Shown here: positions 36,001-39,000 of the stretch, one piece after another | Numbering within the stretch: position 1 is the stretch's first letter | How the letters are laid out: every line of letters starts with the position of its first letter | Assembly (NCBI RefSeq): GCF_001677475.2 | Contig: NZ_CP015229.1 | Reading direction: 5' to 3' (one strand) | Length of the DNA: 64,000 bases | Source of the DNA: Escherichia coli | GTDB lineage: Bacteria > Pseudomonadota > Gammaproteobacteria > Enterobacterales > Enterobacteriaceae | Program-made: the position numbers

Positions 36001-39000
36001 TACGCTCTCCCCCCAGCCTGCCATATTGTGTTTCGTCTTCGCCGGAATATCGCTACGATACAGCGCTATCATTGCCAGAGTGTCAGCATCGGCACCTTCG
36101 TTCGCCAGTTTTGCGTAGTCCGGTTTCGGGAACAGTTTGCTCAGCGGTTGCGTGACATAATCCCTGTCTTCCAGCGTTTTACCCAGTGTTTCAGCAAGCT
36201 GTGCATAACGGTGTTTTGCCGCGCCCTTAATTTCTTCACCAAAGTCTTCAATTTTTTTGCCCCTGACTTCACCTCCGCGCACGGTAGCTTCCCTGTCAGT
36301 AGCGACTGTTGTTTCAGATTCAGGTGCGATTGTCTCAGGCTGCGGGATGTCACGATTTCCTCCGGCCTGTCGACGTACTTCTGCCTGCTGTGCGAGCTCA
36401 GGCAATGAGTTACGAACAGTTCGGGGAAGCTGATCAGGCTGAGGCATACGGACATTGTGTGTAATGTCCGGAGCCGGTAGACCTTCACGTACCAGCGCTG
36501 TGGCGTTCTGCTCATCCGGTGACGGCAGACCACGACGAACTGTTTCGCCCTCCAGTATTTCCCCCTGGCGACCAGCGGCGTTTTCCGGTGCCGGAGCACG
36601 TCCTTTCTGGAAACTCTGGCCCTTAACCTCACCGGTTGTGGTAAAACGACCACCACGTCCGGCCTGATTCTCATCCGGCGTACGCGCCACCTCTCCCGGT
36701 AACGGATATCCCTGTCCGGGATGAATATCGCCGGGGGCGGGCAGACGCGGACGCTCAGTTAACTCCTGTGCTGTCGGACCGGCATCACCTTCAGCCATCT
36801 GTGAACGTACAAGCTCCTCCGCCGTCGGCGCGTTGCCACGGGCAAGGCGGGCCTGTACCTCCGTATCATCCCCCGTGAAACCACGGAATCGCTGGTCACG
36901 CATGAACGCGGGCTGCTCCATCGGGTCAGCATCAGCAATACGCTCTCCGTCAGCCAGGGTGTTAATGGTTTCCGTTGCCACATCTTCAGAGAACGCAGGA
37001 TTATCCATTTCAACGGCATACTGATTCTCGCCTTTCTTCACTACGGACGGTTTCAGGCCGGTGGCGGCGGCATTACGGAAAACATCACTCCCCATGGCGC
37101 TTTTCTCATCCGTGAAATAACGGTTGTCCGGGCGCACCTTTTCAATGCGTTCCGCTGGTCTGGACGCACCATTCCCGTTAATTTCAATGCGGACTTCATT
37201 CGGGTCCCGGAACCGCACCGTCGGGTAAATGCTCCCGTTACCATCCTCCGCATTTTCAGGCTGTGACTGTGCTTCCGGCGTCACTTCCTGTTGTGGGCGA
37301 ATGACTTCTCGTATTGCCTGAAACTGTTGTTCTTCAGTCTCGGTGCGCCCCTCTTTCTGGCTGAGTCTGCGGTATTCCTCAAGCAGTTCAGAACGCGGCT
37401 TCGCCTTCAGCTCATTCATCACAGCCTGTCGCTTCGCCTGTTCGTCCAGTTCATTCAACAGCTGGCTGGCGGCTTCCCGGCGATGAGTTGCGGATGCGTC
37501 ACCCTCTGTCGCCATATCCGCATCAGCATACTGCTCCAGAAGCTGCTCGCGATTCATCCCCTGCATGGATTCACGATGCTGCGCCACCGGATCAACAGAT
37601 TCTGGTTGCGGGGCTGCGTCGTCCTGCTGTACGACTTCAGCCTCACGCATGGCGGCTTCATCTGCCGCCTGACGTCTGCCACGATATCCGGCAACCGCAC
37701 CGAATGGTGCCCCCATCGCAGCACCAAGGGCTGCACCTTCGATCGTTGCGTTAGCCACGCCCTCCCACGGTGACACATCCATTCCGGCGGTATCACGCAG
37801 TGCCATGTTTTCCTGATAGCGTGAATAGCCGCCCTGCGCCGCATTAATCGCCCCCTGTTCCGTGGCATTTCTGACAATGCCGCTTTTAACGGTCTTCGCT
37901 GTGCCTCGTGTCACCAGATTAAACAGTTGTGCGTCACCCAGTTTTGCCGCCATGGCATTCACAGCCAGCAATTCAGGATCGGTTGCCAGCTGCGCGCGCA
38001 CCTCATCGGCAACACGCTCTTTTGCCAGATCCATTTTCTGGCGATCAGTCAGCTGTGCGTGCTGCGGGTCGGCGTCAATGGACAAAAACGTCTGCTGAAA
38101 TTTCGGTGACTGCGCCAGCTCAGAGTAATCCGCATTAAGAACTGCATCTGCTGCCGCCATTGCACTCTGCCCCTGTGCACTGGCTGTGGAATGGGTGATC
38201 AGGCCCGCCTGGAATAAATCCGGCATTTTTTTATCGACAGCTTCTGCTGCCAGTGCCGTGGCTCTTTCCGGCTGCATCCCTGCCGCGATGTATTTTTTCT
38301 CCAGCCCGGCGGTCAGCATTTTTCGCAGTGTGACATCACCCACCTTTTTAGCCACACCGCCAGCAAACACATCTGCCGCAACGGCACCGACAAAATTCAT
38401 CCCCTTAGTCAGCCAGACTGCGGGATCATCATAGCCTTCACTCATTGGCGTATTCAGCGCACGCACAGCACCCGGCGACATATTATCGGTCAGCCATTCA
38501 TCCGAGGCTTTAGCACCATCACTGACTGACTTGCCTGTGACCTTCAGACCTTTACCGACAGCATCAGTCACCGCGTTTTTGCCATCAGGCAGGGTATCGA
38601 TGACCTCATCAGCCCCCCTGCTGCCACCGGCAAAAATATCCTGCACAGTTGCGACACCCGGCAGCCCCATACGGCTGAACTCATTTAAAATACGCGCCCC
38701 TGTTTTTACCGGGCTCTGAATCATCGCATCACCGAGTCCACGGGCCATTTCCCCTGTTCCCCGGACGGACTGGGCGAAACCTTTACCCATTGTTGGCAAT
38801 ACATCGCCCAGGCTGAACGACGTACTGTTATCCTTCCAGCGATTCGGATCAGAGAAAAATGCTTCATAGCTGTCAGTTTCGCCGGGTTGCTGAATGTTCA
38901 GGCTGTTACGATTCTGGTTACCGAGTTGCGCCTCAGGACGCTGTTCCTCTGAATAGGCCATACAGACTCCATAAAAAAACCCGGCACAATGGCCGGGCAT

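Follow-up and report, generated by a model that had tools for sequence, protein, structure and literature searches.

What is a GC-rich hairpin with a run of seven T doing between two late genes of a prophage, just ahead of the ribosome-binding site (RBS) of the second one? The question is raised by the minus strand of the Escherichia coli contig NZ_CP015229.1 (assembly GCF_001677475.2) near position 39,000 of the 64,000-nucleotide (nt) stretch analysed here, which we call the window. The hairpin stands between a gene of 421 amino acids (aa) and a giant gene of 2,793 aa, and the open reading frame (ORF) listed for the giant gene starts at its base. We suggest that the element beginning at 38998 is a true Rho-independent terminator, located towards the distal end of a 933W/Sp5-type late operon. 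Termination itself we infer, and the explanation taken as a whole we hold to be reasonably probable. The parts of the element and the genes beside it are these.

38979-38998, minus strand: stem-loop of an intrinsic-terminator-like element, seen in the sequence, the terminator scan, the fold and the consensus fold
38998-38992, minus strand: 5' arm of the stem, GCCCGGC
38991-38986, minus strand: loop, CATTGT
38985-38979, minus strand: 3' arm of the stem, GCCGGGT
38973-38979, minus strand: tract of seven T, the putative terminator U tract; its first T can pair with G38998
39031-40296, minus strand: 421-aa gene, homologue of Sp5 ORF79/ECs1241 (ECs_1241) and 933W L0133
30580-38961, minus strand: giant gene, 2,793 aa, homologue of Sp5 ORF80/ECs1242 (ECs_1242) and 933W L0134

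The prophage in the window is a short-tailed Shiga toxin (Stx) prophage of the 933W/Sp5 type. The region matches 186 phage records, all of them Stx-converting or related short-tailed lambdoid phages of E. coli or Shigella (Sepvirinae: 933W, Sp5/VT2-Sakai, phi24B, P27 and others), and it has matches in 424 of 5,426 complete E. coli genomes.

Read along the minus strand, the junction consists of ATG (39000), CCCGGC, CATTGT, GCCGGG, TTTTTTT, AT, GGAG, TCTGT and ATG (38961). The terminator scan places at 38998-38979 a stem of seven pairs, six of them G-C, with a loop of 6 nt, followed by the T run. Folded alone, the 29-nt element reaches -13.6 kcal/mol against -6.1 ± 2.4 in dinucleotide shuffles (z = -3.1), and only 2 of the 200 shuffles fold as stably. 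The GC hairpin and T tract that the earlier note had placed within 38959-39000 are borne out by sequence, terminator scan and fold. In the centroid fold of the 86-nt context the hairpin is the sole helix retained, and the Shine-Dalgarno (SD) sequence is unpaired. The hairpin starts 32 nt past the TAA stop of the 421-aa gene, on the sense strand and in non-coding DNA; the gap between the end of the 421-aa ORF (39031) and ATG 38961 is 69 nt. Judged by sequence, it has every feature expected of a Rho-independent (intrinsic) terminator. A bidirectional terminator is ruled out, since no T run follows on the plus strand.

The element is kept in the relatives. We collected 48 IMG/VR loci with the 421-aa protein, and the Salmonella relatives were reached via the protein index. 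Three hairpin types occur in E. coli among the 48 loci: GCCCGGC/GCCGGGT, ACCCGGT/GCCGGGT and GCCCGAC/GTCGGGC. The Salmonella relatives, with the N-terminus of the giant protein 60-66% identical, carry a 6-bp stem of the CCCGG type, five to six T, GGAG and ATG, with the order kept. In an alignment of 11 variants, 96% of the cells are paired, and the value falls to 25-47% when the 3' partner is slid. There is one double change from G-C to A-U, the outer pair cycles between G-U, G-C and A-U, and unguided RNAalifold returns the identical 7-bp helix. The T run counts at least 5 in every relative (5-9 in the 11 variants), and its spacing to GGAG stays within 2-6 nt across all variants. Mean pairwise identity is 0.60 in the upstream intergenic part, 0.81 in the stem and 0.94 in the block from SD to ATG.

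Two further observations concern the conserved junction. A TTAAY pentamer at 39013-39017 (minus strand; columns 21-25 of alignment A1), some 15 nt 5' of the hairpin, occurs unchanged in 11 of 11 variants from E. coli and Salmonella amid diverging neighbours; it gives the in-frame TAA that bounds the ORF track. E. coli 2013C-4830 (NZ_CP027325, locus L054, 4400-13601) has a degraded prophage that retains the hairpin together with an intact giant gene; IS3/transposase fragments take the place of the late genes upstream, and the 421-aa gene is truncated.

The position of the hairpin bears directly on where the giant gene begins. Three sites are involved.

38959-38961, minus strand: true start ATG of the giant gene, from annotated starts of relatives and the poor conservation of the upstream ATG
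38967-38970, minus strand: SD sequence GGAG, 5 nt 5' of ATG 38961
38998-39000, minus strand: spurious start ATG of the ORF track, overlapping the hairpin base; also used in the 933W and phi24B annotations

The ORF track gives the giant gene 2,806 aa, from 30580 to 39000; the hairpin and the T run, in translation, make up the first 13 codons, MPGHCAGFFYGVC. From ATG 39000 the protein would begin MPGHCAGFF (MPGHCAGFFYGVC); from ATG 38961 it would begin (M)AYSEEQ, in full (M)AYSEEQRPEAQLGNQNR. The equivalent of ATG 38961 is used by Sakai ECs_1242 (2,793 aa), by PGAP, by the RefSeq record of P27, which annotates an RBS at the position equivalent to GGAG 38970-38967, and by PhiR12_3. L0134 of 933W and vb_24B_48 of phi24B are annotated from the ATG inside the hairpin, 39 nt (13 codons) upstream. 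This upstream ATG is lost in 5 of 8 E. coli variants, where ATA or ACG stands in its place, and its frame is broken by the variation in T-run length (5-9) and by a 1-nt deletion in P27. In P27 (NC_049925, locus L001, 13370-13395) the deletion falls in the 3' arm, giving GCCGG for GCCGGG, so that the stem is shorter and the upstream ATG no longer in frame. No SD sequence precedes ATG 39000. The block TGGAGT.T.TATGGC, which holds GGAG, five bases and ATG 38961, is invariant across all relatives. Because the upstream ATG is unconserved, its frame is broken by insertions and deletions and the SD-ATG block is invariant, this comparison assigns the start of the giant gene to ATG 38961, with a product of 2,793 aa, and ATG 39000 is not a start. 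Weak support comes from the substitutions past ATG 38961, of which third codon positions take more than their share (318 of 663 over the first 50 codons, an ungapped count that includes the divergent Salmonella sequences). Here the earlier note was right on both counts, that the ORF-track start translates the hairpin and its seven T, and that the plausible start is the ATG with GGAG 5 nt upstream.

The early start may have left traces in the literature. For the long form of the giant protein, a SignalP prediction is entered in the phi24B record as a 'putative leader peptide', and Riley et al. call this protein a probable outer-membrane protein (PMC3342100). In our view the artefactual hydrophobic extension probably fed both the leader-peptide note and the outer-membrane idea. 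No relatives of the giant N-terminus or of the 421-aa protein were found in the PDB.

The hairpin at 38998 is not alone. With a stringent scan, which takes a single hairpin of -9 kcal/mol or lower beside a T run of 4 or longer, provided that the next 8 bases hold 5 or more T, seven elements are found within 30.3-64 kb on the strand of the late operon (57465, 55065, 54625, 44993, 44484, 41715 and 38998), compared with 2.0 ± 1.4 in dinucleotide shuffles (maximum 6 in 60 shuffles). Six of the seven are intergenic, though intergenic DNA makes up 6.4% of the region (binomial P about 5e-7). Five of the others are placed as follows.

41699-41715, minus strand: terminator-like hairpin and run of seven T, then AGGGGG and the ATG (41673) of a 218-aa gene
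44976-44993, minus strand: terminator-like hairpin just past the lom stop codon
55048-55065, minus strand: terminator-like hairpin after the 404-aa major capsid gene, then AGGAG and ATG
54608-54625, minus strand: terminator-like hairpin with a spurious ORF-track ATG (54615) in its loop
57447-57465, minus strand: terminator-like hairpin after the portal gene

At 55065, 41715 and 38998 the SD sequence of the next gene lies 1-7 bases past the T run; 54625 is a looser case, with an SD-like GGGG 4 bases past it. The hairpin at 54625 also repeats the annotation problem of the giant gene, as ATG 54615 is a second ORF-track start inside a hairpin and L0118 of 933W is annotated from that codon; the real start there is likely ATG 54588, after the GGGG. 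In 933W the same scan yields 15 elements downstream of pR', only 3 of which, around the tRNA and stx genes, are annotated, and 13 other terminator-like hairpins lie between pR' and the hairpin of the giant gene. The hairpin at 38998 is more than chance, because it is conserved with a compensatory change and belongs to an enriched, almost wholly intergenic set. It is one of a series and not special to the giant gene, and the tie to that gene in particular suggested by the earlier note does not hold: it is 1 of 7 in the window and 1 of 15 in 933W.

What would such a terminator do in a late operon? In the 933W record one strand carries Q, pR', qut, tRNA genes, stx2AB and the genes for lysis, terminase, portal, capsid and tail, then lom and L0129-L0134, and the giant gene stands near the distal end of this same-strand series, about 28 kb from pR'. 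Late transcription of Stx phages begins at pR', which is constitutive; in lysogens it is halted at tR', and Q frees it on induction (PMC7547250); antitermination of the late genes from pR' by Q is also stated in general terms (PMC2629481). The window ends inside the late operon, and the Q, pR' and qut of its own prophage lie beyond it.

Both genes at the junction are needed by the phage. With an in-frame deletion of Sp5 ORF79 or ORF80 there are no plaques and no lysogenisation, while DNA-filled heads remain, and the two are assigned to tail assembly as essential genes (PMC5155283). The giant protein has the Pfam domains LPD38, LPD5, LPD1 and MuF_C, which make it a 'large polyvalent protein'; no Pfam domains were found in the 421-aa, 218-aa and 150-aa proteins.

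Only 11 nt separate the T run from ATG 38961, and no promoter-like site was found by the scan between hairpin and ATG. Hence, the giant gene can be expressed only by polymerase that reads through the hairpin. Read-through in lytic growth is expected to be efficient, because the operon would, by the 933W record and PMC7547250, belong with the lambdoid late operons under Q antitermination, and it must be so, since both flanking genes are essential late genes. We suggest that during lytic growth the polymerase, modified by Q at pR'/qut, would ignore this terminator and roughly a dozen similar ones upstream, and would transcribe the giant gene. In the lysogen, unmodified polymerase would stop at the hairpin and the 8.4-kb giant gene would stay silent. 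Such polymerase might come from moron promoters such as that of lom, from an inserted insertion sequence (IS) or from spurious promoters. The RBS of the giant gene begins 3 nt past the U tract, so that a terminated transcript would end just short of it. The hairpin may in addition protect the 3' end of the upstream mRNA, and the U tract beside the SD sequence may aid ribosome loading in the read-through mRNA. The earlier note had expected attenuated read-through or separate regulation of the giant gene. Its second proposal, if taken to mean a promoter of the gene's own, is not supported by the 11 nt available. From the first, the hairpin between the two genes stands, but the expected behaviour is efficient lytic read-through with unmodified polymerase stopped, rather than attenuation aimed at the giant gene.

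Termination in the lysogen would fit the expression pattern known from phi24B. There lom (CM18) is expressed with or without induction, whereas the downstream giant gene (CM7) follows induction, which surprised the authors (PMC3342100). In the window, lom is separated from the giant gene by four terminator-like hairpins (44993, 44484, 41715 and 38998).

The arrangement resembles known ones in part. Like the Q-antiterminated lambdoid late operons (lambda tR' and downstream; pR'-qut-tR' of 933W/H-19B, controlling stx), it shows a GC hairpin with a U tract, in sense orientation within a long late unit, and this unit in complete relatives starts at pR' beside Q, its distal genes needing terminator-resistant polymerase (PMC7547250). 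The described Stx-phage terminators lie just past pR' and around the tRNA and stx genes and are the sole ones annotated in 933W; unlike them, the 38998 hairpin is about 28 kb further on, between tail genes and against the next SD sequence. Moron terminators (Juhala et al. 2000, cited in PMC2629481 and PMC4104026) are likewise Rho-independent and sit in the late operon with late expression unblocked, and lom with its own terminator (44993-44976) fits the moron pattern, being expressed in lysogens (PMC3342100). However, the genes flanking the 38998 hairpin are conserved tail genes, not accessory insertions; as both are found in all 186 matching phage records and are essential for tails, a moron terminator is ruled out here. 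The window hairpin at 55065-55048, right after the major capsid gene, also has an analogue in another phage. The T-phi of phage T7 is an internal terminator after the major capsid gene of a late structural cluster and is partly read through. Unlike the setting of the 38998 hairpin, T7 uses a different polymerase and no antiterminator.

Several points weigh against the terminator explanation. For a terminator, a loop of 6 nt and a G-U pair at the outer end are slightly less than ideal. The covariation amounts to few independent events in closely related sequences of a narrow clade, and the conservation of the hairpin, as read from the alignments, is supportive rather than overwhelming evidence. 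The hairpins at 44993, 44484 and 41715 already shield the giant gene from lom transcription, and the added value of 38998 hinges on unproven initiation within 41.7-39.0 kb, where the sole candidate promoter is a weak 9-of-12 match at 39340-39313, in coding sequence. Since Q, pR' and qut lie outside the window, antitermination is drawn from the complete relatives. Anatomy and conservation support the terminator reading of the earlier note well; actual termination, read-through with Q and the insulating role are what we infer from them.

A first alternative is that the hairpin acts as an attenuator, ending a useful fraction of transcripts even in lytic growth, so that the mRNA of the giant gene is dosed below that of the 421-aa gene and the genes upstream. 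The strong hairpin with its seven T would suit this role, and a hairpin of this kind also stands behind the major capsid gene, a point at which a step-down of expression is plausible. A protein of 2,793 aa is costly and probably needed in few copies. Antitermination of the lambda Q type is processive, which speaks against such a role. With 13 earlier terminator-like hairpins in 933W, even modest losses at every one of them would starve the distal gene, which is essential (PMC5155283). We consider attenuation unlikely.

A second alternative, a role in RNA stability or processing, we regard as quite unlikely to stand in place of termination. The hairpin would either shield the 3' end of the upstream mRNA from exonucleases once this has been cleaved, or stabilise the giant mRNA from its 5' end, with the U tract as a loading platform for the ribosome (S1). 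It adjoins the SD sequence of the next gene at several junctions, the distance from T run to GGAG is held at 2-6 nt in all variants, and the SD sequence is left open in the centroid fold. A stability element, however, needs no U tract, yet at least five T are present in every relative, and such a role can coexist with that of a terminator without replacing it.

The terminator reading can also be carried further. The 933W/Sp5-type late operon might be deliberately punctuated by 'terminator-RBS junctions', each a hairpin and U tract leading without a break into the SD sequence of the following gene, with every late-gene block, the giant gene above all, strictly Q-dependent, the U tract doubling as a ribosome-loading enhancer and the 38998 hairpin perhaps ending a lysogen RNA from the 3' part of the 421-aa gene. 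All of this jointly appears quite doubtful.

A small RNA (sRNA) is a very improbable third alternative. The hairpin would end a small or 3'-derived lysogen RNA transcribed from a promoter inside the 421-aa gene, like the Hfq-bound prophage sRNAs of enterohaemorrhagic E. coli (EHEC), whose prophages are rich in sRNAs. A GC hairpin that ends in seven T is the module to which Hfq usually binds (PMC4104026), and the weak site at 39340-39313 is on the same strand. This promoter match is, however, 9 of 12 and within coding sequence. No EcOnc entry exists at this position in Sakai (PMC4104026, Table S2), in a list whose filter dropped sense sites within 100 bp or less of a coding sequence (CDS). Rfam gives no match at the hairpin locus when the whole window is scanned at gathering thresholds, and a permissive scan of 38700-39500 gives sub-threshold sRNA matches only, all ending at the U tract and thus generic, terminator-driven matches. 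The known EHEC sRNA HnrS maps to Sp9, Sp10 and Sp12 and not to the hairpin locus.

The weakest alternative, that translation truly starts at ATG 39000, with the hairpin as coding sequence for a leader peptide and its terminator look a coincidence, is hardly credible: 933W L0134, phi24B vb_24B_48 and the SignalP note speak for it, but it is rejected on the ATG absent in 5 of 8 E. coli variants, on the T-run indels and the P27 deletion that shift its frame, and on the SD sequence, missing there and invariant before ATG 38961, the start used in Sakai, PGAP, P27 and PhiR12_3.

We note some RNA observations from within the giant gene itself. By cross-linking and analysis of cDNA (CRAC) with Hfq, ECs1242 ranks 17th among CDSs, almost wholly through antisense reads (PMC4104026, supplement). 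The sRNA candidate EcOnc36, with a Rho-independent terminator, lies antisense inside the giant gene (PMC4104026, supplement); in the window it falls at about 33.3-33.4 kb on the plus strand, an approximate mapping from Sakai coordinates. Riley et al. report antisense-strand products within the phi24B giant gene.

The hairpin site is neither annotated nor studied as far as the readable records and papers go, its kind being well known, and in the literature on ECs1241 and ECs1242 no transcript mapping of their junction was found. One more position is of use here.

NC_002695.2, plus strand, about 1,296,005-1,296,011: Sakai equivalent of the U tract 38979-38973

The Term-seq dataset for Sakai is GSE143631 (PMC7547250).

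The surroundings of the junction hold several other elements. An IS21-family element lies at 41900-44320 on the plus strand (istA 42029-43528, istB 43525-44280), with an IstB_IS21 domain (E = 9e-62) and a 499-aa transposase, and adds about 2.4 kb compared with 933W. It sits in the equivalent of ECs1237/L0129, with lom on one side and the 218-aa gene on the other, and runs antisense to the late operon; late transcription must cross it to reach the tail and giant genes. Beyond the giant gene, a palindromic hairpin, CCCCGTAC-AGAA-GTACGGGG at 30551-30570, starts 9 nt past the stop and is followed, in the sense direction, by no more than a weak T tract, TTGGTTGAT; the late transcription unit may end at this hairpin. 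A group II intron at 27721-29451 (plus strand) follows between the end of the giant gene and the host flank, with Rfam matches to group-II-D1D4-3, group-II-D1D4-1 and Intron_gpII and a reverse-transcriptase/maturase ORF at 28053-29270 (RVT_1 and GIIM domains). The content downstream of the giant gene differs from that of 933W and P27. The part from 20204 to 27605 is the apparent host flank and prophage-end region and contains a UPF0257 gene (20204-20950), tandem ynfE/ynfF-like molybdopterin oxidoreductases of 808 aa (21526-23952 and 24010-26436), and after them an Rfam match to sRNA-Xcc1 (26847-26935) and an AntA/P22_AR antirepressor-like ORF (26976-27605). A full-length match to the Hfq-binding sRNA STnc560 (275 bits, 6660-6872, minus strand) is unrelated to the hairpin.

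Last but not least, the N-terminus is fixed for a conserved, essential 2,793-aa protein of Stx phages, whose 933W and phi24B records start 13 codons early. Current understanding of lambdoid regulation is unchanged by the hairpin, which would offer a simple explanation for a published puzzle, that of lom being on in lysogens and the giant gene downstream of it off. Taken together with its fellows, it suggests that the morphogenesis operon of Stx phages carries many more internal terminators than are annotated, which matters for prophage transcriptomes and for Q-dependent expression.

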